DNA of 64,000 nt from an uncultured Acidobacteriota bacterium (lineage in GTDB: Bacteria > Acidobacteriota > Terriglobia > Terriglobales > Acidobacteriaceae): NCBI GenBank assembly GCA_963788645.1, contig CAWBHF010000021.1:3410-67409 (forward strand), written 5' to 3'. Shown here piece by piece: positions 8,991-39,472 of the stretch (within the stretch, counting starts at the first letter, position 1; each line of letters starts with the position of its first letter). The position numbers and the translations under genes are program-made. The notes beneath the pieces are model-generated. The model searched no databases. It was given only the letters and a program-made list of their open reading frames with translations, and was not told the DNA's origin.

Positions 8991-9716
8991 TTACTTCTTG
9001 TCTGCTTTGTCTTCCTTAGCTTCGGCGATACGTGCCTGTTGGCCCGCTTCAGACACGGCCTTCAAGAAGGCTTCCACACTTTTCGGAGTTGGCCCCTTGC
9101 CTGAAAGGATGGTTCGAAATTCAACATGCTTGCCGTAAATCGCGCGAGTCGAGTCGTTGTCCTGCTCCACAACAGCACCTTCCAGCGTCAAGCCGGCGAA
9201 TACGCCTTTTGAACGCGAGTAGGTCAGCACTTCCGTGTTCATCTTCCAGTCAGTCCCGGCGGACGCATGACGGCCCACTGGGCCTGCCGCACCCGATGCT
9301 TCACCGGTGAGTTCGAACTTGCTGGACAACAGATGCTGGAAACCCTGCTCATTCATGACCAGCATGATCAGATCCACGCCTTCGACGCCGATCTGCAATC
9401 CCCAGCTACCACCGCCAACGGACACGAAGGCGGGCGCGCTCCAACCGGTCGATGTACGGCACGAGGCCACTCCGCGGCCGTGCTTGGCGCCAAAAATGAA
9501 GCCACCTTTAATCAAGTTCGGCACCACGAGGATGCACTTGGCGTCGTTCAGCACTTCTTCGGGAATACCCTTGTCCGGGGTCGACATAATCTCGCTAATA
9601 ACGTCCACCGACTTTTGCATACGCTCAACCGTATCGTCACGATTCGAGTCTGCAAATGCATAAGTTCCAACCAAACCCATCAAGCTCATCAGCAGCAGTG
9701 AAATTGTCTTTTTCAT
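8991..9716 (-). CDS. Lipid-binding SYLF (Ysc84/DUF500) domain protein, exported
   Basis: 241 aa with a signal peptide. AKCILVVPNLIKGGFIFGAKHGRGVASCR...GWSAPAFVSVGGGSWGLQIG...DLIMLVMN...GVFAGLTLEGAVV is characteristic of SYLF. Confidence 0.85.
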   Translation of the reverse strand: MKKTISLLLMSLMGLVGTYAFADSNRDDTVERMQKSVDVISEIMSTPDKGIPEEVLNDAKCILVVPNLIKGGFIFGAKHGRGVASCRTSTGWSAPAFVSVGGGSWGLQIGVEGVDLIMLVMNEQGFQHLLSSKFELTGEASGAAGPVGRHASAGTDWKMNTEVLTYSRSKGVFAGLTLEGAVVEQDNDSTRAIYGKHVEFRTILSGKGPTPKSVEAFLKAVSEAGQQARIAEAKEDKADKK

Positions 9717-11508: not shown

Positions 11509-12258
11509 ATGGAAAACAAAGGGCTCCAAGTCGTGCAGTCTGGCGAGCGGACGAATAGCGAAGGAAAACCAGTCAGCAATCTGATTCTTCTATCGCTCTC
11601 CGATAGTGACTACAGCTCACTGCGTCCTCATCTCGAATACGTCAGTTTGCCTAACCATCTGGTTCTTCACGAGGGGAGTGGAAAGGTGGAATTCGCGTAT
11701 TTCCCGAATCGAGGTTTGATTTCTCTTGTTGTCGTAATGAAAGACGGGAGGACCGCCGAAGCCGGCATAGTCGGCAATGAGGGCTTTATCGGAACCCCGG
11801 CGGCTGTTGGCTTGAGCAGGAGCCCGCTTCAAGCGGTGGTACAAATCACGGGGGACGGGTTTCGGGTAGAGGTTGCAGCTTTGCAAGACACGTTGGAATC
11901 CACTCCACCCCTGCAATTGATGTTGAGCCGCTATGCAGTGGTTCAGGGAATGCAGGTTGCACAAACAGCCGCGTGTAATCGGCTGCACGATATTCAGCAA
12001 CGCCTTGCACGGTGGTTGCTAATGACACAAGACAGAGTGGATTCAGAGTCGCTGCCGATTACCCATGACTTTCTCGCAACCATGCTAGGGACAGATAGGC
12101 CTACCGTGAGCTTGGCAGCTGGTGCTTTGCAGAAGAAGAAGCTCATCGCGTACGCCCGTGGCGCGGTGAAGATCGTGAACCGCAAGAAACTTGAAGACTC
12201 CGCCTGCGAGTGCTACGGGATTACCCAACAGTACAACGGCGAGCTGGGATTGAAATAA
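11509..12258 (+). CDS. Crp/Fnr-family transcriptional regulator
   Basis: 249 aa. It has a cNMP-binding-like beta-barrel (VLHEGSGKVEFAYFPNRGLISLVVVMKDGRTAEAGIVGNEGFIG) and a C-terminal HTH (ITHDFLATMLGTDRPTVSLAAGALQKKKLI). Confidence 0.9.
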   Translation: MENKGLQVVQSGERTNSEGKPVSNLILLSLSDSDYSSLRPHLEYVSLPNHLVLHEGSGKVEFAYFPNRGLISLVVVMKDGRTAEAGIVGNEGFIGTPAAVGLSRSPLQAVVQITGDGFRVEVAALQDTLESTPPLQLMLSRYAVVQGMQVAQTAACNRLHDIQQRLARWLLMTQDRVDSESLPITHDFLATMLGTDRPTVSLAAGALQKKKLIAYARGAVKIVNRKKLEDSACECYGITQQYNGELGLK

Positions 12259-12383
12259 GTCCGCAGCTGAAGCCACCACCAATAAAACTCTACGTGCACC
12301 CTGTGGTTCGGCGGAGTCACAGAGCATCGCTTCTGGTCACGAACCGTGCCACTCTCGACCGCGATTTTCTTCAAAAGCAAAAG

Positions 12384-12399
12384 TGTGCACTTTTGAACA
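12384..12399 (+). promoter_or_regulatory. Box 1 of a 16-bp inverted repeat (TGTGCACTTTTGAACA), a Crp/Fnr-type operator candidate
   Basis: Fits TGT-N10-ACA. Exactly 21 nt later comes TATTAT (12421-12426). The geometry matches a class II activator site centred near -41.5. Confidence 0.5.
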
Positions 12400-12429
12400 G
12401 TCGTTCTGCTTTTGCCAATGTATTATTCG

Positions 12430-12562
12430 ACCCGTTCGACAGAGCAGTCATGGGTTGGTGTCGATTGACAGTGTCGACGTCGGACCCTCACGACGGCTCT
12501 ACTTTCTGTCCCCAAACGCGCGCGTCATCAGGCCGGACTCCCAAAGTCCGGCCCTTTTCTTC
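12430..12562 (+). ncRNA. Candidate small RNA, copy 1 (ends approximate)
   Basis: Lies downstream of the box 1 promoter and ends in the hairpin GGCCGGAC-TCCCAAA-GTCCGGCC (12531-12553) followed by CTTTTCTT. It is homologous to 15338-15474. The only shared ATG is not followed by a conserved ORF. Confidence 0.5.
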
Positions 12563-12714
12563 GGTTTGATGCTGCTTTCAGCTACCTGCTTACAAAACGG
12601 AAATCCTGAATTAGCGAATGTGATCAATACTGCGCAGACCGTGACGTATGCGCTTGTATAGAGTGCCGAGTGAACGTTGCACACTCAGGAATCAAAACGA
12701 AGAAGGGACAATCT

Positions 12715-13470
12715 ATGAAACTGCTTACGATTTCTTTGCTGGCTCTGTCGTTGTCGGGAATCGGCGCTTATGCCCAAACAGATATGGACGCTGTGAAGAT
12801 CACTCTTGGGACCGCGGACAAATTTGCGTTGCTGGGTGGCTCCGGCATCACCAACGTCAGCGCCCACACCTTCATAATCGGCGACGTTGGCAGCGCTCCG
12901 ACGCCCACAGTGAAAGGAATCAAGCCGTCCCAGGTGAAGGGCCAGCTATTCCTCAAGTCCAGTTCGGTAACGGCTGCGGCTCAGAGGGGTCTCACAACGG
13001 CATACAATGAAGCCGCGGGCGCGTCTTGTGGCACAGTCCTTACCGGCGTGAATCTGGGCGGAAAGAAGCTCATTCCCGGGGTTTACTGCTTTGCGACAGC
13101 CGCGCAATTGACTGGCACTCTGAAGCTGGACGCTCAGGGGAATTCCAACGCGCAATGGATCTTCCAGATCGGCACCACGCTGACCACCGCACCGAATTCC
13201 AAAGTTGTCGTGAATCTCGGCGGCAAGGGCGCAAGAGGATGCAATGTGTACTGGCAGGTTGGTTCCTCGGCGACGGTCGGAAAGGGTAGCATTTTCGTAG
13301 GAAAGATGATGGCCCTTACCAGCGTCACGCTGAACGGGGGCGTCCTTCGAGGCAAGGCACTGGCACGCAACGGTGCGATCTCAATTTCTGCCCAGGAGAC
13401 GGTTGACGGTCCTCCGTGTGGTAATGTGAGTGCCGCGGATAATGACGATATGGCTGCCTTAGAGAACTAA
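12715..13470 (+). CDS. Ice-binding-like (DUF3494) family secreted protein
   Basis: ORF 12670-13470; the Met at 12715 starts the signal peptide MKLLTISLLALSLSGIGAYAQ. Diagnostic segments are ADKFALLGGSGITNV...IGDVGS...LTTAYNEA...LGGKKLIPGVYCF...LTGTLKLDAQGNSNAQWIFQIGTTLTT...NVYWQVGSSATVG. Confidence 0.85.
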   Translation: MKLLTISLLALSLSGIGAYAQTDMDAVKITLGTADKFALLGGSGITNVSAHTFIIGDVGSAPTPTVKGIKPSQVKGQLFLKSSSVTAAAQRGLTTAYNEAAGASCGTVLTGVNLGGKKLIPGVYCFATAAQLTGTLKLDAQGNSNAQWIFQIGTTLTTAPNSKVVVNLGGKGARGCNVYWQVGSSATVGKGSIFVGKMMALTSVTLNGGVLRGKALARNGAISISAQETVDGPPCGNVSAADNDDMAALEN

Positions 13471-13519
13471 GGCGATTGATTATCAGTTTGGGCTGCCGCT
13501 CATCGGAGTGGGCTGTCGG

Positions 13520-14047
13520 TCAGAATTGAATAATCCCATCCCTAATGCTACTCCACACTCTCGGGGAATAATGTGCGTTCGTTTTGTCAATTTCGAGTAG
13601 AGGAGCATTGGCCGACGGCCGCCCATTCCCTGCCCGTGATCTGCCGTTGCGACGGAAGTGCACCGGAGCGCGCAGCTTTTCTGGTTGGCTCAGGGATGGC
13701 TTTACGTTCAGCACGAAGTGTAGGGTCGCCAGCAGGAAGTGAGCCCCATCTGACTTGGTCACGAGCGCGTCAACTGACCTGAAGGCATCATCCGGAACAT
13801 CACTATTCTCGGCAAGCATCACGATCGGGACCTGGGGGTTGACCTGCTTGATCTCAGCCGCGACGACCGATCCATCCGAGAGGCCCGGGTGATACTCGAT
13901 CACGATTGCATCCACCGGACGCGACATGAAAAGCTGCAGGCCATCGCGACCGTTGGTCGCGGTTACCAGCTCATACCCATTTTCCCGCAACAAATTGAGT
14001 TGGGCCGGCTCTGGGTGAATGCAGAGGACAGTGTTGTTGCTAGCCAT
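13520..14047 (-). CDS. Receiver-like (pseudo-receiver) domain protein
   Basis: 175 aa with a REC-like fold pattern. The acidic pocket reads CIHPEP instead of DD, and the phospho-acceptor position reads VDAIVIEYHPG (Glu instead of Asp). The conserved Lys is retained (ALVTKSDG). Confidence 0.7.
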   Translation of the reverse strand: MASNNTVLCIHPEPAQLNLLRENGYELVTATNGRDGLQLFMSRPVDAIVIEYHPGLSDGSVVAAEIKQVNPQVPIVMLAENSDVPDDAFRSVDALVTKSDGAHFLLATLHFVLNVKPSLSQPEKLRAPVHFRRNGRSRAGNGRPSANAPLLEIDKTNAHYSPRVWSSIRDGIIQF

Positions 14048-14132
14048 GTCGGTTAGGTATACAGGCCAGGCCGCACGCGGTTCTGTTCACAATTGCTCAT
14101 ATCTCGCAAAGCGATGCTGGTCAGACCTCGCA

Positions 14133-14360
14133 TCAGCCTCTCGACGTTCCCGCACGCGCACCGGCAATGGTAAGCGCAATCCCGCCGGCAATCAGCACCG
14201 CGCTGATGATTGGCGACACGCGTTCACTGTGACTGGTTTGCACGCCGATGTTCACATCGCCAGCTTTGATGCCATGCGTCTCGGTTTGGGGAACGGGCAC
14301 GATCAGGGATGCAATACCTAGGACAACCACGAGCAACCCGGCGAATAGCAGGATTTTCAT
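14133..14360 (-). CDS. Small two-TM membrane protein (DUF3185-like)
   Basis: ORF 14133-14375; the Met at 14360 gives MKILLFAGLLVVVLGIASLIVPVPQTETHGIKAGDVNIGV...ISAVLIAGGIALTIAG. Confidence 0.6.
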   Translation of the reverse strand: MKILLFAGLLVVVLGIASLIVPVPQTETHGIKAGDVNIGVQTSHSERVSPIISAVLIAGGIALTIAGARAGTSRG

Positions 14361-14383
14361 AAATGGTTCCTTCACAGCAGTAA

Positions 14384-15235
14384 TTACGCCGCTGACTTCC
14401 GCATGGCTTTCATGTAGCTGTCCATTGACTGGGTCAACTGGGCGTCCACCTCGTCCGCGATTGTCATGACGTCAGGTAACACCAGGCTGAAGTCCAGAGA
14501 TTCCAGATTGATCTGCAATGTTCCGAAGATCGTCACCTGGAGTATTCGCGATTCATGCACCAGCATCGCTGGAGTGTAGCCTTGCAGATATCGCAGCTTT
14601 CCATGAGCCACGGCCGCGGCGGAAAAGACAGCATCGCTGTCCTTGTCCGTCGCCCGGGGCTTGCCCAGGCGGAGCGCCAGGTCTTCAACCAGCTTGGGAA
14701 GATGTCCCGTGCGATCTTCATCGCTAAGCGAAATGCGGTTGAGTTCACTGCTCTGTTTTGCCCGCTTCAACCAGGTCTGAACGATTCCGGCACTGCACCG
14801 CAGCAGGATCGCGCCCACGCTCTCCTTGTCCACTCGTTTACCGGGTTTGCGATGTACCACCTTCTCTCGGACCAGATCGATGAACCGCCCGATTTCGAAT
14901 GGCTTTACGACGATTTCGTCCGCCTCTAATAGGATGGCTGCCATTGCGCTTTGCACGTCAGGGTAGCCGCTGACCAGCATGGTCAACGCATTCGGTTGGG
15001 AGTGGCGCATGGCTGAGACTACAGTAAATCCGTCGCCCGGGTTGGGCATGTGGAGGTCCGTGATGAGCACGTCAAAACTCTCAGTCGCGATTCTTCTCAG
15101 AGCTTCTGTCACGCTGGAGGCAGCAACTACTTCAAATCCCTTGCGTTCAAGCCCTTGGCTCATCATCGCAAGTACCGCGCTATCGTCATCTACCAGCAGC
15201 ACTCTATGCGCAGTGGGTGGATCGGTCGAAGTCAT
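14384..15235 (-). CDS. Response regulator (REC domain) with an uncharacterised C-terminal domain
   Basis: 283 aa. RVLLVDDDSAVL...FDVLITDLHMPNPGDGF...TMLVSGYPD...IVVKPF is a canonical receiver. The C-terminal ~150 aa have no recognised DNA-binding motif. Confidence 0.9.
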   Translation of the reverse strand: MTSTDPPTAHRVLLVDDDSAVLAMMSQGLERKGFEVVAASSVTEALRRIATESFDVLITDLHMPNPGDGFTVVSAMRHSQPNALTMLVSGYPDVQSAMAAILLEADEIVVKPFEIGRFIDLVREKVVHRKPGKRVDKESVGAILLRCSAGIVQTWLKRAKQSSELNRISLSDEDRTGHLPKLVEDLALRLGKPRATDKDSDAVFSAAAVAHGKLRYLQGYTPAMLVHESRILQVTIFGTLQINLESLDFSLVLPDVMTIADEVDAQLTQSMDSYMKAMRKSAA

Positions 15236-15291
15236 AGAGCACGCCTCTGGTCACGGATAGTGCCAGTCTAAAAGATCTTTGTTTTCAAAAC

Positions 15292-15307
15292 TGTGCAATT
15301 TTGAACA
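15292..15307 (+). promoter_or_regulatory. Box 2 of the 16-bp inverted repeat (TGTGCAATTTTGAACA)
   Basis: The arms TGTGCAA / TTGAACA are near-palindromic. 21 nt later comes TACCAT (15329-15334). Confidence 0.5.
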
Positions 15308-15337
15308 GTCGTCCTATTTTGGGCAACGTACCATTCC

Positions 15338-15474
15338 GCATGTTCGATCGAGCGGTCATGGGTTAGTGTCGGATCAATAGTGGCGACGTTCGGACCCTCA
15401 CGACTGCTCTACTTTCTGTACCCTGAACGCACGTTTGTTGTCAGGCCGGGCCTCCCTCAGGTCCGGCTTTTTTG
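15338..15474 (+). ncRNA. Candidate small RNA, copy 2 (ends approximate)
   Basis: Homologous to 12430-12562. It ends in GCCGGGCC-TCCCTCA-GGTCCGGC (15445-15467) followed by TTTTTT. The next gene is convergent, so this cannot be a 5' leader. Confidence 0.55.
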
Positions 15475-15571
15475 AGAACTCAACGCGACCCCGCCGTCCG
15501 ACACTGACGGCGTCAAGCCGACTTCGCCTCTCGAAGTTCAGATCGTACGTCTCAATGGAAGTATGCGAGAG

Positions 15572-16255
15572 CTAGTCGTGGAGAACAACGTTGAGCAGTG
15601 AACTGTGGACTTGCAATCCGCCTTCAATACCGCCGGCGTATTGAATGAAACCCAGTTTTCTGAATCGATTCATGAAAAAGCTAACCCGCGAACGCGTGGT
15701 TCCAACCATGTCTGCCAGCGTTTCCTGACTTATCTTGGGGACGACGGTCTCGGGCACACCTTCCTTGCCAAAATGAGCCAGCAATAGGAGAACGCGGGCC
15801 AGTCGTTTTTCACTAGAATTGAACAATTGATCAACCAGATCTTCTTCATAGCGGATGTTCCGCGACAGCAAATACGCCACGAACATATCGGAAAACGCAT
15901 GTTCGCGATGGAGGGCTTCCATCATTGCCTTCTTGTCGATACGCAGAAGCGCGCAATCGGTCATTGCAGCCGCGGAACCCATGCGCAGCGCCTGGCCTGC
16001 CAGCGCACCCTCCCCAAAGAAGTTTCCCTCACTCAGCATTCCTATGGTAGCTTCTCGGCCGGTCTGGGATACGACGGTGAGCTTCACCTTGCCGGCCTGG
16101 ATGTAGAAGACGGCGTCCGCCCCATCTCCCTGGGCGAAGATCGTTTGCTTCTTGCCGACAGCCACATTTTTCCTGCCATCGCCAATCGTTGCGAGAAAGG
16201 TGGTGGGATCGAACTCTCGCCTATTCTTGCCGTTCGTTGCTTTAGGAGGGCTCAT
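15572..16255 (-). CDS. Crp/Fnr-family transcriptional regulator
   Basis: 227 aa. IFAQGDGADAVFYIQAGKVKLTVVSQTGREATIGMLSEGNFFGEGAL is the cNMP-binding part. ISQETLADMVGTTRSRVSFFMNRFRKLGFI is the HTH. Confidence 0.9.
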   Translation of the reverse strand: MSPPKATNGKNRREFDPTTFLATIGDGRKNVAVGKKQTIFAQGDGADAVFYIQAGKVKLTVVSQTGREATIGMLSEGNFFGEGALAGQALRMGSAAAMTDCALLRIDKKAMMEALHREHAFSDMFVAYLLSRNIRYEEDLVDQLFNSSEKRLARVLLLLAHFGKEGVPETVVPKISQETLADMVGTTRSRVSFFMNRFRKLGFIQYAGGIEGGLQVHSSLLNVVLHD

Positions 16256-17383: not shown

Positions 17384-18547
17384 ATGCGTTTCATCCCTTC
17401 TATTCGTTCGTTGTTGTTCGCGCTCGTAATGCTAGCCGTCTCGGCTGCGGCGTTCGCGCAAATCGGCATATCCATTACCATCGCCCCTCCAGCGCTGCCC
17501 GTGTATGAGCAGCCACCCCTCCCCGCGCAGGGCTATATCTGGACACCTGGCTACTGGGCCTACAGCCAGGGCGATTATTACTGGGTGCCAGGCACGTGGG
17601 TGATGGCCCCGCAAGTCGGCTTCCTCTGGACTCCGGGCTATTGGGGTTGGAACAATGGCGGATACGCTTTCAATGAAGGCTACTGGGGTCCTCACGTGGG
17701 TTTCTATGGCGGAATCAATTATGGCTACGGCTATACCGGTGAAGGTTACCAGGGCGGGCGCTGGGACCACGGGCAGTTTGCCTACAACCGTTCGGTGAAC
17801 AACGTGAATGTCACCAACATTCACAACACCTATAACACCACAGTGATCAACAATACGACCGTAAACCGGGTGAGCTACAACGGCGGCAACGGGGGACTCA
17901 CTGCCCGTCCCAACTCGGAACAAGAGGCTGCAGCGCACGAGAAACATATCGCGCCGGTCGCGGTTCAGACTCAACATGCCCAGGCTGCACGCGCGAACCC
18001 GCAGCAGCGGGCTTCCGTGAACCAGGGCAAGCCGGCCATCGCAGCTACTCCCAAACCGGGAGCATTTAGCGCCGGCGTACCGGCCAAGGAAGCAGGAGCG
18101 CCGTATAAACCTGAAGGCAAGAGTGCGGTCGCTCAGCCCTCGGCAAAGACGCCACCTGCTCGGTCGGCGAACAACGTTCCTCGACCTGGCACTGCGGAGC
18201 GCAGTACTCCAGAACCGAGCAATGAAGCGCCTCGTCCAACGACTGCACCGGAGAAGGCAACTGCGCCGCGTCCGGAGAACACGCCGCGTCCGGTAGAGAA
18301 CGCCTCTCGGAATGAAAGCAAGCCTCAACCGCAAGGCGCTCCACACCCAGAAGCCGCTCCTCGTCCAGAGACCGCTTCGCGTCCGGAGAATGCTCCTCAT
18401 CCAGAAGCCGCGGCCAAGCCCGAGAATACGCCGCGTGCTGAAGGCCAGGCTCATCCGGAGGCTGCTCCCAGGGCTGAAGCCCGTCCAGAGAATGCTCCTA
18501 AGCCAGAAAAAGAGGCTGCTCCAGAAGAACGGCGACAACAGCAGTAA
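17384..18547 (+). CDS. Secreted YXWGXW-repeat protein with a Pro/Glu/Ala-rich low-complexity C-terminal half
   Basis: 387 aa with a signal peptide. GYIWTPGYWAYSQGDYYWVPGTWVMAP..GFLWTPGYWGWNNGGYAFNEGYWG are WxxGxW-type repeats. The C-terminus carries degenerate PENAPxPEAA repeats. Confidence 0.85.
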   Translation: MRFIPSIRSLLFALVMLAVSAAAFAQIGISITIAPPALPVYEQPPLPAQGYIWTPGYWAYSQGDYYWVPGTWVMAPQVGFLWTPGYWGWNNGGYAFNEGYWGPHVGFYGGINYGYGYTGEGYQGGRWDHGQFAYNRSVNNVNVTNIHNTYNTTVINNTTVNRVSYNGGNGGLTARPNSEQEAAAHEKHIAPVAVQTQHAQAARANPQQRASVNQGKPAIAATPKPGAFSAGVPAKEAGAPYKPEGKSAVAQPSAKTPPARSANNVPRPGTAERSTPEPSNEAPRPTTAPEKATAPRPENTPRPVENASRNESKPQPQGAPHPEAAPRPETASRPENAPHPEAAAKPENTPRAEGQAHPEAAPRAEARPENAPKPEKEAAPEERRQQQ

Positions 18548-26381: not shown

Positions 26382-26921
26382 ATGAAACTAGCAGGAATTA
26401 TCGGCACGGCCGTTCTGTCTTTGACCCTGGGAGCCTCCACAGCTCCCGTTTACGCGCAACAAGAGGAACACGCCCAACAGGAAGATAAAAAGGTGCAGCA
26501 GGACAAGCCTGCCCAACAAGAAGAAAAGCACGCGCAGCAAGAGGAGAAAAAGGCAGAGCAGGCCAAGCCCGCGCAGCAAGAAGAGAAACACGCACAGCAG
26601 GAAGAGAAGAAATCAGAACAGGGAAAGCCTGCCGCGCAACACGAACAGGAGGCACAGCACTCCGATGTCAACCACGGCCGCATTCCTGAGGACCGTTTTC
26701 ACGCCAATTTTGGTCGCGAGCACGTGTTCGTCATTAATCGTCCCGTAATTGTCGAAGGGCAACCTCGCTTCCAATACGGAGGCTATTGGTTTGGATTCCG
26801 TCAGCCGTGGCCAGTGGGCTGGCTTTACACCGACAACGTGTATGTTGACTACGTCGACGGAGGGTACTTTTTGTATAACCCGTTCCATCCCGGCATTCGG
26901 GTCGTGATTATCGTGATCTAG
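26382..26921 (+). CDS. Exported hypothetical protein with ~20-aa tandem Q/E/K repeats
   Basis: ORF 26352-26921; the Met at 26382 follows GGAGG and starts a signal peptide. The repeat is KPAQQEEKHAQQEEKK(A/S)EQ(A/G). The C-terminal domain is rich in aromatic residues. Confidence 0.7.
   Translation: MKLAGIIGTAVLSLTLGASTAPVYAQQEEHAQQEDKKVQQDKPAQQEEKHAQQEEKKAEQAKPAQQEEKHAQQEEKKSEQGKPAAQHEQEAQHSDVNHGRIPEDRFHANFGREHVFVINRPVIVEGQPRFQYGGYWFGFRQPWPVGWLYTDNVYVDYVDGGYFLYNPFHPGIRVVIIVI
26457..26655 (+). repeat. ~60-bp tandem coding repeats (about 3.5 units)
   Basis: Seen in the translation: QQEEHAQQEDKKVQQD / KPAQQEEKHAQQEEKKAEQA / KPAQQEEKHAQQEEKKSEQG / KPAAQHEQEAQH. Confidence 0.7.
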
Positions 26922-37654: not shown

Positions 37655-37704
37655 AGTTATGCTCGGATTCCCCAGCGAGACGTCACGTCATAAAAAATTC
37701 AACT

Positions 37705-37735
37705 GTCATCCTGAGCGAAGCGAAGGATCTATGCA
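37705..37735. repeat. REP-like element (GTCATCCTGAGCGAAGCGAAGGATC type)
   Basis: Sequence seen directly. Related copies are embedded in the two 289-bp direct repeats. Confidence 0.6.
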
Positions 37736-37761
37736 TTGTCTTTGCAGCGTATATCCAGCGT

Positions 37762-38050
37762 GGGTGCCCCATCCTGACGTCGCAGAATAGCCCGATCCAA
37801 CCCGAAAAGGTCAGTCATCCTGAGCGGAGGCGTCGTTCGCGAAGCGAATGACGCCGCAGTCGAAGGATCCCGCTGCGGCCAGTTCAATCGACAGGCCTCA
37901 GGGAATTCTCACAGTCAGAGCTAGCGGCAATCTGGTGGGAACGCCTTTTCACATCATCGCGCGCGGGTGCCCCATCCTAACGTCGCGGAAATAGTCCGAT
38001 CTTAACCTCACTCTAGTTCTGCGACGTTTAGGGTGGGGATTTTGACCTTC
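37762..38050 (+). repeat. Composite ~289-bp repeat, unit 1 (MITE-like, with internal inverted repeats)
   Basis: Near-identical to 38255-38540. It contains GGGTGCCCCATCCT(G/A)ACGTCGC twice in forward orientation and once inverted (GCGACGTTTAGGGTGGGGATTTT), plus a GTCATCCTGAGCGGAGGCGTCGTTCGCGAAGCGAATGACGCC hairpin. Confidence 0.8.
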
Positions 38051-38070
38051 TGATCGCTGGAGGTACTCCG

Positions 38071-38113
38071 CCGGGTGCCCCGCTCCTTGCGTTTTTTGCA
38101 AGGGGCGGGTGAC
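38071..38113. repeat. REP-like hairpin
   Basis: CCCGCTCCTTGC-GTTTTTT-GCAAGGGGCGGG. Confidence 0.55.
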
Positions 38114-38164
38114 CCACTTAAGCCCGGTTTTGGCTCACCGCGATATTCAGCTCTCCCCAACTCT

Positions 38165-38220
38165 GTCATCCCGACCGAAACAGATCATCGCAAAGCGATG
38201 ATCTGTGGAGTGGAGGGACC
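38165..38220. repeat. REP-like element (GTCATCCCGA... type) with an internal hairpin
   Basis: GTCATCCCGACCGAAACAGATCATCGCAAAGCGATGATCTGTGGAGTGGAGGGACC. Confidence 0.55.
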
Positions 38221-38254
38221 TTGTGTTGAAATGTGCATCGGACAGCGGCCATCC

Positions 38255-38540
38255 GGGTGCCCCATCCTAACGTCACAGAATAGTCCGATCCAACCCGAAA
38301 AGGTCAGTCATCCTGAGCGGAGGCGTCGTTCGCGAAGCGAATGACGCCGCAGTCGAAGGACCCCGCTGCGGCCAGTTCAACCGACAGGCCTCAGGGAATT
38401 CTCACAGTCAGAGCGAGCGGCAATCTGGCGGGAACGCCTTTCACATCATCGCGCGGGTGCGCCATCCTAACGTCGCCGGAAATAATCCGATGCCAATCTC
38501 ACTCTGGTTCTGCGACGTTAGGGTGGGGATTTTGACCTTC
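38255..38540 (+). repeat. Composite ~286-bp repeat, unit 2
   Basis: Direct repeat of 37762-38050 with a 493-bp period and only scattered substitutions and 1-3-nt indels by eye. Confidence 0.8.
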
Positions 38541-38554
38541 CCCTTTTTGGCATG

Positions 38555-38700
38555 TGACCGTGGCTGGCCCACCTTTGCGGGTTTTGAAAAAAGCGGGACG
38601 AATGCAGCCTGCGTCCCGATTTTCCACCCGTGACTGCCGACCTCATCGTTCCCACCCTCACAACGAACGTAAAGGTGAGCCAGCCCCCGAAAGGCCAACG
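38555..38700 (+). repeat. ~145-bp interspersed repeat, copy E1
   Basis: GGCTGGCCCACCTTTGCGGGTTTTG...GCAGCCTGCGTCCCGATTTTCCACCCGTGACTGCCGACCTCATCGTTCCCACC... aligns with 39300-39445. Confidence 0.7.
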
Positions 38701-38820
38701 AACGGACGGAAGGCTTCGTCCAGGTGTAGAACCGCCCACCCAAGCAGAACGAGCTTGAGTGGGCCACCGGCCTAATTTCGGTGTACGATATCCGCGTGTA
38801 GAGCATTAGAGGATACCTTC

Positions 38821-39294
38821 ATGAGTCAAGCGGAGATCACGTTCGCGGTTATCGTCGGCATAATCTCGGCGCTGGGCGTCGTGGGAGGCGCTATCCTTAC
38901 CGCATACGCGGGCGATAGGGCAGCGAGGCTCGCGCTTAAGGGCGTGGAACGGCAGATCGCATTGAATTATGCGGTCAAGATGTCTGAATTGCGACAGCTC
39001 TGGATCAACGATCTTCGTGACGCAATGGCTGGGTTTCACTCAGTCGCGATCCTGCCCGGGTCGCTCGATAAGCGCGAGTTCTTTAGGCTTGGTACGAAGA
39101 TCGAATTGCTGATGAATCGCAAGGACCCACGCTATTCGGAGCTAAACGAATGCATGTATGAATTCCTGGCGGCCGAGTCGAGAGAGGAAAAGTGGTCATG
39201 CAACGCCCCGTTTGTAACGATTTGCCAAGACATCTTGAAGACTGAATGGGGGCTTCTAAAAACGGAACTTGCAAGCGCCAACCTCCCACGCTGA
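38821..39294 (+). CDS. Hypothetical single-TM protein
   Basis: 157 aa. The N-terminal TM is ITFAVIVGIISALGVVGGAILTAYAG. The remainder is soluble with no recognisable domain. The gene is flanked by direct repeats E1 and E2. Confidence 0.55.
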   Translation: MSQAEITFAVIVGIISALGVVGGAILTAYAGDRAARLALKGVERQIALNYAVKMSELRQLWINDLRDAMAGFHSVAILPGSLDKREFFRLGTKIELLMNRKDPRYSELNECMYEFLAAESREEKWSCNAPFVTICQDILKTEWGLLKTELASANLPR

Positions 39295-39299
39295 AGACT

Positions 39300-39445
39300 G
39301 ACACGGCCGGCCCACCTTTGCGGGTTTTGCAAAGCCGGGGACTAACGCAGCCTGCGTCCCAGTTTTCCATCCGTGACGCCGACCTCATCGTTCTCACCTT
39401 TACAAAGAACTTAAAGGCTAGCCAGCACCCCATCAACAGAGCCAG
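39300..39445 (+). repeat. ~145-bp interspersed repeat, copy E2
   Basis: GGCCGGCCCACCTTTGCGGGTTTTGCAAAGCCGGGG...GCAGCCTGCGTCCCAGTTTTCCATCCGTGACGCCGACCTCATCGTTCTCACC... It has the same orientation as E1. Confidence 0.7.
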
Positions 39446-39472
39446 CCACAAGGTGTATCATTTCAGCCGTCT

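Follow-up and report, generated by a model that had tools for sequence, protein, structure and literature searches.

A stretch of 64,000 nucleotides (nt) from an uncultured bacterium of the Acidobacteriaceae (contig CAWBHF010000021.1), hereafter the window, holds two stretches that very probably are genes for a previously undescribed non-coding RNA (ncRNA) of about 130 nt from soil Acidobacteria (Terriglobales). Copy 1 sits between a Crp/Fnr-family regulator gene (gene 1) and an ice-binding-like gene, the latter 150 nt downstream on the same strand; copy 2 sits between a divergent response-regulator gene and a convergent Crp/Fnr gene (gene 2). An earlier reading of the letters alone (the sequence-only reading) had proposed that the two regions align end to end and share four blocks. 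Both statements were borne out: positions 12320-12566 and 15228-15476 are same-strand (+) paralogues with a mean column identity of 82% over the end-to-end alignment, and all four blocks were found where they had been placed. Two of them, TGTGCAnTTTTGAACAGTCGT and TCGGACCCTCACGACnGCTCTACTTTCTGT, occur exactly twice each in the 64-kb window (0.00 expected from 100 shuffles). A repeat search of the window (families D5 and D10) agrees with the paralogy of the two copies, and no third copy of the RNA unit was detected within the 64 kb. Three details required revision, one of them on the terminator stems (see below). The repeat had been said to begin at 12384 and 15292; the similarity is real, but it starts about 60 nt farther upstream, at 12320 and 15228, and this additional segment contains a second palindrome, GTCAC-N5-GTGCC, in both copies. 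Moreover, the first shared block is promoter DNA and does not belong to the RNA.

The predicted transcripts run from 12433 to 12562 and from 15341 to 15473, each about 130 nt long, and contain the following elements:

12441 to 12500, + strand: three-helix hairpin of copy 1 (fold, covariation, and a covariance-model match at 12437-12504, 63.9 bits)
12501 to 12530, + strand: C/U-rich single-stranded linker of copy 1, ACUUUCUGUCCCC..., unpaired in the consensus fold
12531 to 12562, + strand: intrinsic terminator of copy 1, stem-loop 12531-12553 followed by CUUUUCUU (terminator scan)
15349 to 15410, + strand: three-helix hairpin of copy 2 (fold, covariation, and a covariance-model match at 15345-15414, 71.8 bits)
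15411 to 15444, + strand: C/U-rich linker of copy 2, ACUUUCUGUACCC... (fold and consensus fold)
15445 to 15473, + strand: intrinsic terminator of copy 2, stem GCCGGGCCU / AGGUCCGGC followed by UUUUUU (sequence and fold)

The consensus fold consists of a long 5' hairpin, the unpaired linker, and the terminator. The hairpin, of about 60 nt, is built from the outside in: helix P1 (in copy 1, 12441-12449 paired with 12492-12500), an internal loop AU / UCAC, a helix GGGUU / GACCC, a second internal loop, (A/G)G / UC(N) in copy 1, and the apical helix P2. Both internal loops (AU / UCAC and AG / UUCN) are asymmetric and essentially invariant. A pseudoknot in which the apical loop (GACAG) would pair with the linker (CUGU) was considered and dropped: the pairing can be drawn in some members of the subfamily and is missing in others.

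The sequence-only reading had called for a search of related genomes, and homologues were indeed found there. Scanning genomes with a portion of the 3' block recovered 10 copies in nine metagenome-assembled genomes (MAGs) of Acidobacteriota/Terriglobales, and nhmmer applied to those loci added three divergent ones; one locus (L003) carries three copies within 4 kb. When metagenomes were scanned with a pattern describing the hairpin only, at least 135 distinct units on at least 120 contigs were retrieved, and the covariance model (R1) yielded at least 143 matches in 130 sources. All family-wide unit counts given here rest on the MAG loci and the metagenome matches listed (at least 120 contigs). 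As a control that was blind to the RNA, four loci were fetched through homologues of the response-regulator protein alone; these homologues were drawn from the best 120 matches, all at least 84% identical, and are therefore a shallow sample. Three of the four loci have the RNA at the expected place, divergently upstream of the gene.

The fourth control locus (L134:2243-2500, - strand) retains the -10 box as well as the palindromes, including a TGTTCAATTCTGAACA site that is perfect; its transcribed part is unrelated to the family and forms other hairpins. The locus seems to exchange its small-RNA "cargo." At L003:4815-4884, the third, divergent copy adjoins the response-regulator gene and has mismatches (GAGUU / GAACC, UAAC) in the otherwise invariant helix, along with a weakened terminator and an intact promoter. 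It may be a decaying or neofunctionalised paralogue.

Base-pair covariation among homologues, the next check that had been proposed, was detected in outer P1, in P2, and in the terminator. Using 99 non-redundant hairpins and a specified structure, we found 89.4% of the cells paired and a covariation score of 0.232, compared with 0.143 ± 0.007 in shuffled alignments (none of 500 shuffles reached 0.232); sliding the partners by one to three columns lowered the score to 0.097 or less. Changes on both sides occur at 10 of the 20 hairpin pairs. The outer pairs of P1 exchange among GC, AU, and CG, and those of P2 among UA/GC and GC/AU/CG. The first pair of P2 is U.G in 49 hairpins, C.A in 34, U-A in 13, and C-G in three; the exchange of U.G for C.A is an isosteric wobble of the sort that is typical of a functionally important pair. 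These pairs also identify the strand: the + strand is that of the RNA, because an invariant U.G pair and the U.G cases of this exchanging pair become A.C mismatches on the other strand and because the U-run is one-sided.

Both copies end in an intrinsic terminator of their own, and neither is simply the leader of the next gene, as is expected for a stand-alone small RNA (sRNA). The sequence-only reading had noted that a GC-rich hairpin with a T-run closes each copy (12531-12553 and 15445-15467), which is correct, and also that the two stems differ in sequence while keeping their pairing. The latter was overstated: in the window they are nearly one stem, distinguished by one extra pair and one G.U rather than by compensated replacement, and real compensation is seen only across the wider family, where 55 terminators show compensatory changes at seven of the eight stem pairs.

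A conserved peptide had been judged not to explain the similarity, and we came to the same conclusion. The shared ATG behaves as described: at 12450 it opens 39 codons in copy 1, in frame with an open reading frame (ORF) at 12210-12569, and in copy 2 it reads ATG GGT TAG. In most members of the family it is followed by GGT TAG or GGT TAA. The spacer between the two invariant blocks varies from 22 to 32 nt, with modulo-3 classes of 45, 42, and 36 and hence no preference; because the variable hairpin length follows no reading frame, a peptide is excluded. No ORF is conserved among the homologues. Compensatory changes together with the lack of a conserved frame are the marks of a structured ncRNA, to which the invariant inner helices add no information. 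Nor are the copies remnants of a duplicated gene 5' region, an outcome that would have undone the original proposal.

The family was also absent from the collections searched. Rfam 15 gave no match at the gathering score for the whole window, only two chance snoRNA matches elsewhere when 12250-15600 was searched at E ≤ 10, and none at E ≤ 1 for 20 diverse family loci. The units therefore belong to no Rfam 15 family, including FnrS, CyaR, the riboswitches, and the ribozymes; Acido-1 (RF01686) and Acido-Lenti-1 (RF01687), the orphan models that had been singled out for comparison, matched neither copy. In the literature on Acidobacteria sRNAs and motifs we found no description of this family, and no characterised regulatory RNA for Acidobacteriota. 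Rfam holds only orphan motifs for the phylum.

The DNA ahead of the two RNAs has a common design, with the following predicted elements:

12336 to 12350, + strand: upstream palindrome of copy 1, GTCAC-N5-GTGCC, about -90 from the predicted start
12384 to 12399, + strand: palindrome of copy 1, TGTGCACTTTTGAACA, 16 bp, a predicted Crp/Fnr-dimer site centred at about -41.5
12421 to 12426, + strand: -10 box of copy 1, TATTAT, with no -35 at 17 bp and an inferred start at about 12433
12621 to 12636, + strand: promoter of the ice-binding-like gene, TGATCAATACTGCGCA, 20 nt, TATAGA, downstream of the copy 1 terminator
15251 to 15265, - strand: upstream palindrome of copy 2, GTCAC-N5-GTGCC
15265 to 15270, - strand: TAGACT, predicted -10 box for the divergent response-regulator gene, with 21 bp between it and the shared palindrome
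15292 to 15307, + strand: palindrome of copy 2, TGTGCAATTTTGAACA, equidistant (21 bp) from two divergent -10 boxes
15329 to 15334, + strand: -10 box of copy 2, TACCAT, with a predicted start at about 15341

In both copies, the layout is TGnnCA-N4-TGnnCA, then exactly 21 bp, then a -10 box without a -35 element. The two -10-like hexamers, which had been said to sit at equal offsets, occupy the same alignment columns, and the columns G-T-A..A-T of this region are invariant in an alignment of 12 homologues. Across the family, the spacer from the palindrome to TAnnnT measures exactly 21 nt in 55 of 65 distinct promoters and 22 nt in another six. Relative to the -10 box, this geometry matches that of a class II (-41.5) Crp/Fnr-dependent promoter, given the inferred start site. 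Each RNA is thus preceded by a predicted promoter of its own at a fixed spacing of 21 bp. Because the geometry is of class II and two such regulators are encoded alongside, the two adjacent Crp/Fnr proteins are the obvious candidates for binding the palindrome.

The upstream palindrome, GTCAC-N5-GTG(A/C)C, present in both window copies, is kept in 12 homologues. At copy 2, it overlaps the place where the divergent transcript of the response-regulator gene is predicted to begin, and AGTCTAGA is kept in those homologues that have this divergent gene. The palindrome is retained at copy 1 although the divergent gene is absent there; it could be a second regulator site or a relic of the divergent promoter.

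Other promoter types were tried for these elements and rejected. A sigma-54 promoter at TGGTCAC-N-GTGCC fails by one base too many between GG and GC, the element being a palindrome; an extracytoplasmic function (ECF)-type promoter (GAAC ... CGT) has the wrong spacing (3 nt, or 21 nt to the -10 box). In the position of an ordinary -35, 17 bp ahead of the -10 box, stands CAGTCG, and a scan for consensus promoters returned no sigma-70 promoter on the + strand. A second type of promoter accompanies the same hairpin in other loci (L021, L043, L089, L112, L016, L105, and others): the perfect palindrome TACGG-N6-CCGTA abutting a TTGnCn -35, then 17 nt and TAnnnT, about 45-70 nt upstream of the hairpin. 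It is found mostly in members without a second terminator.

The TGnnCA-N4-TGnnCA palindrome is not confined to the RNAs. It occurs eight times in the window (1.19 expected), at 9346, 9938, 12384, 12621, 14084, 15292, 17122, and 20384, clustered within 11 kb. Seven of the eight, between 9.3 and 20.4 kb, lie ahead of the two RNAs (12384 and 15292) and further genes: the region of an lmo0937-family (membrane protein) gene (9938), the ice-binding-like gene (12621), a small receiver-domain gene (14084), a WXXGXW-repeat gene (17122), and a GT4 glycosyltransferase gene (20384). The palindrome at 9346 is inside a Ysc84 gene. In all, six neighbouring genes have the palindrome ahead of them. For most of the eight, a -10-like box stands about 21 nt farther downstream. 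The cluster looks like a compact regulon island of the Crp/Fnr type with stress-type genes.

The neighbouring genes are:

11509 to 12258, + strand: Crp/Fnr-family regulator gene 1 (HTH_Crp_2, 3.5e-16), a candidate activator
12715 to 13470, + strand: Ice_binding/DUF3494 (ice-binding-like) gene, downstream of copy 1
14384 to 15235, - strand: response-regulator gene (REC plus an RsbRD_N-like domain), divergent from copy 2
15572 to 16255, - strand: Crp/Fnr-family regulator gene 2 (cNMP_binding plus HTH_Crp_2), convergent with copy 2, a candidate activator

The distances that had been given for copy 1, from the Crp/Fnr stop at 12258 on one side and from the DUF3494/Ice_binding start at 12715 on the other, are correct. 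The two Crp/Fnr proteins are only 21% identical to each other. Gene order is kept across relatives, counted among the units listed: the 283-aa response regulator lies divergently upstream in at least 32 units, about 121-152 nt from the hairpin, and a Crp/Fnr gene is convergent downstream in at least 20 (copy 2 and 19 more). The ice-binding-like gene follows on the same strand in at least 12 related units, and in at least five a Crp/Fnr gene precedes on the same strand, as gene 1 does in the window. Altogether, Crp/Fnr genes recur in at least 37 related units. The comparison shows the boundaries of the unit, structure at the level of RNA, a lack of coding capacity, the geometry of the promoter, and synteny.

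We infer transcription, the identity of the binding regulator, action in trans, and the partner or targets, and propose the following course of events. A dimer of the Crp/Fnr family, probably one of the two encoded nearby, would bind TGnnCA-N4-TGnnCA. From this site, some 41.5 bp upstream of the start, it would activate a promoter with a -10 box but lacking a -35, and at copy 2 the same palindrome would also serve the divergent response-regulator gene. Transcription would proceed from near 12433 or 15341 to the intrinsic terminator, giving RNAs of about 130 nt that presumably act in trans within the local stress-type regulon. The invariant hairpin would be the functional core, most likely as a recognition module for a protein and less likely for a small ligand, and the C/U-rich tail behind it may pair with purine-rich ribosome-binding sites.

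Does each copy represent an independent gene for a stand-alone, regulated, structured sRNA of a new family? We consider this probable on the comparative evidence. The sequence-only reading had left a choice between a free sRNA and a terminator-controlled leader; of the two, the free sRNA fits the window copies better and the leader worse, because the gene beyond copy 2 is convergent and the gene downstream of copy 1 has its own promoter. That separate palindrome, between the RNA and the ice-binding-like gene, is found in window copy 1 and in eight of 10 related units that precede the gene. The formats of the family are mixed. Among the units listed, about 74 have a second hairpin terminator 22-62 nt after the hairpin, and about 24 have a U-run directly after P1, in which case the hairpin may itself terminate transcription. 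About 30 have neither, and some of these lie 60-160 nt ahead of same-strand genes of unrelated functions. What is conserved family-wide is the hairpin only, plus the terminator where present.

Several observations weigh against an independent sRNA with a structure and a mode of action as proposed. About 40% of the family lacks a second terminator, and some of these members precede a same-strand gene by 60-160 nt; this implies a cis role, past or present, for part of the family. Covariation is absent from the inner helices, GUC/GAC and GGGUU/GACCC, and so their pairing rests on wobble-compatible single changes. Their invariance, and that of the loops, was partly imposed by the search patterns; the 5' block was unconstrained in the first scan, yet it is still invariant. 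Changes in copies that depart from the pattern are one-sided, several of these copies have unpaired mismatches in helices, and the helix changes in the copies fetched blind to the RNA are wobble-compatible. Single-sequence folding energies are modestly better than those of shuffled sequences (z = -2.1 and -1.5). The linker, a candidate for an anti-Shine-Dalgarno-like seed, is kept only inside the window's subfamily and not across the family, and a duplex scan of both window strands gave no target better than those of shuffled seeds (best non-self duplex -21.6 kcal/mol, against -20.1 to -29.6 for 20 shuffled seeds). Finally, no candidate binding protein was found; the output domain of the neighbouring response regulator is of the RsbRD_N type, which is not RNA-binding.

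As to how the RNA might work, we weigh a base-pairing sRNA, a protein-binding module, and a ligand sensor, giving none of them a majority. If the RNA acts by base pairing, the tail (CUUUCU, CCUUUU, CCCUCC, etc.) could mask ribosome-binding sites while the hairpin stabilises the molecule or binds a chaperone; CUUUC-type tails directly after P1 do recur in many family members. That conservation is limited to the hairpin, and that the hairpin comes in two formats, is best accounted for by the protein-binding reading. In its strict form, in which the hairpin is the site of a single RNA-binding protein, the free RNAs are decoys, and the leader copies are direct targets, we nevertheless regard it as unlikely. 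A near-invariant hairpin does occur both in terminated sRNAs and in the 5' leaders of unrelated genes, conservation is focused on the internal loops and closing pairs (including the isosteric U.G / C.A exchange), no linear seed is kept across the family, and loci may hold several copies (two in the window, three in L003). But each RNA has one hairpin rather than the many sites typical of sponge RNAs, and no protein has come forward: the adjacent response regulator is only RsbRD_N-like and has no relative in the PDB. An RNA-binding (ANTAR-like) output was rejected for it on the same grounds, as its C-terminal half matches only RsbRD_N and has no sequence relative in the PDB.

That the units are cis-acting leaders or attenuators, riboswitch-like or protein-controlled, and gate read-through (from copy 1 into the ice-binding-like gene), we hold to be distinctly improbable. 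Copy 1 does lie 150 nt ahead of a gene on its own strand, and in at least 12 related units the gene that follows is the ice-binding-like one; terminator-less hairpins precede same-strand genes with good ribosome-binding sites (for a small secreted protein, a 72-aa hydrophilic protein, an ABC-like protein, and RecO), about 24 hairpins could terminate at the U-run right after P1, and invariant internal loops are typical of aptamers. On the other hand, copy 2 and at least 19 other units have a convergent gene downstream, and the ice-binding-like gene has its own palindrome and -10 box after the terminator, in the window and in eight of 10 related units. The genes behind terminator-less members share no common function, unlike the regulon of a metabolite riboswitch, and more generally the units are not consistently co-oriented upstream of functionally related genes, the same-strand downstream genes being heterogeneous. 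A reading that combines these elements, in which the hairpin is a dedicated recognition domain (a ligand aptamer or the site of an RNA-binding regulator) that Terriglobales reuse in Crp/Fnr-controlled free RNAs, as decoys or sensors, and in leaders or attenuators of stress-type genes, is possible, though on balance doubtful. Scarcely credible, by comparison, is the view that there is no functional RNA and that nothing more lies behind the similarity than promoter or regulatory DNA that was duplicated, the decayed start of a gene, or a small peptide gene. It can appeal to the first 60-110 nt of the repeat, which are promoter/operator DNA common with the divergent gene, and to the 39-codon frame of copy 1. 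However, conservation extends 130 nt beyond the -10 box, the base pairs covary (strand-specific G.U pairs included), as do the terminators, indels ignore the reading frame, and in most members translation from the shared ATG would stop after two codons.

The stand-alone sRNA that we favour has known counterparts. In enterobacteria, FNR or CRP activates the sRNAs FnrS and CyaR by way of a site at -41.5. Like them, the window units are predicted stand-alone RNAs (roughly 90-130 nt) with an intrinsic terminator, a -10 box without a -35, and a Crp/Fnr-type palindrome at class II distance, and the RNA is part of the regulator's wider regulon, here a predicted one. They differ in that they have no sequence or structure match in Rfam, in the palindrome (TGnnCA-N4-TGnnCA), and in conserving a structured hairpin rather than a linear seed. 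AbcR1/2, GlmY/GlmZ, and CcsR1-4 are paralogous or tandem sets of sRNAs, and GlmY/GlmZ share a protein-bound structured domain. As in these sets, a few kb separate copies that are homologous to each other, and each copy has a promoter and terminator of its own; the C/U-rich strand of the window RNAs is reminiscent of anti-Shine-Dalgarno seeds. There is no homology to any of these sets. CsrB, GlmY, and EutX are examples of decoy RNAs, and in EutX/Rli55 and the ANTAR leaders one protein-binding RNA motif occurs both in mRNA leaders and in a decoy sRNA. In the present family, too, small RNAs with a terminator and the leaders of various genes share one conserved module, and a response regulator is encoded alongside. 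Unlike in those systems, this regulator lacks an ANTAR or any other RNA-binding domain, and the hairpin is not a dual-hexaloop ANTAR substrate. Within the phylum, Acido-1 (RF01686) and Acido-Lenti-1 (RF01687) are orphan Acidobacteria ncRNA candidates from comparative genomics, of unknown function (PMC2864571). The new family resembles them in its origin as an Acidobacteria ncRNA candidate from comparative genomics and differs in that neither model matches it.

The window contains other repeats as well. A region of about 1.8 kb at 37655-39470 is without long ORFs and rich in repeats. It holds two copies of 187 nt that are 96% identical, a 35-mer resembling GGGTGCCCCATCCTAACGTCGCAGAA in four copies, inverted arms with 227 nt between them, and a second pair, of 127 nt, that is 85% identical. 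The region may be similar to a miniature inverted-repeat transposable element or represent another repeat or ncRNA family. Five in-frame tandem copies of about 37 nt, rich in AAG/CAG/GAA codons, lie at 26466-26622, and four in-frame tandem copies of 37 nt lie at 18260-18443 inside the WXXGXW-repeat gene; in both cases these probably represent coding repeats of low complexity.

Acidobacteriota rank with the most abundant bacteria of soil, and to our knowledge no post-transcriptional regulatory system is known in them, nor was one found in the literature searched. Were the reading of the hairpin as a recognition domain true, it would amount to a new system of this kind in the phylum. The family described here, a novel one, is a predicted transcription-factor-controlled bacterial sRNA with an unusually conserved structured core. 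It is abundant (at least 143 copies), its boundaries are sharp, and its type of promoter is common to a cluster of stress-type genes that encode an ice-binding-like protein, an lmo0937-type membrane protein, a WXXGXW-repeat protein, glycosyltransferases, and two response regulators. It offers a predicted operator sequence for an uncharacterised Crp/Fnr regulon, and the extreme conservation of its structured RNA domain calls for a partner. The family thereby provides a testable entry into the sRNA biology of the Acidobacteriota.

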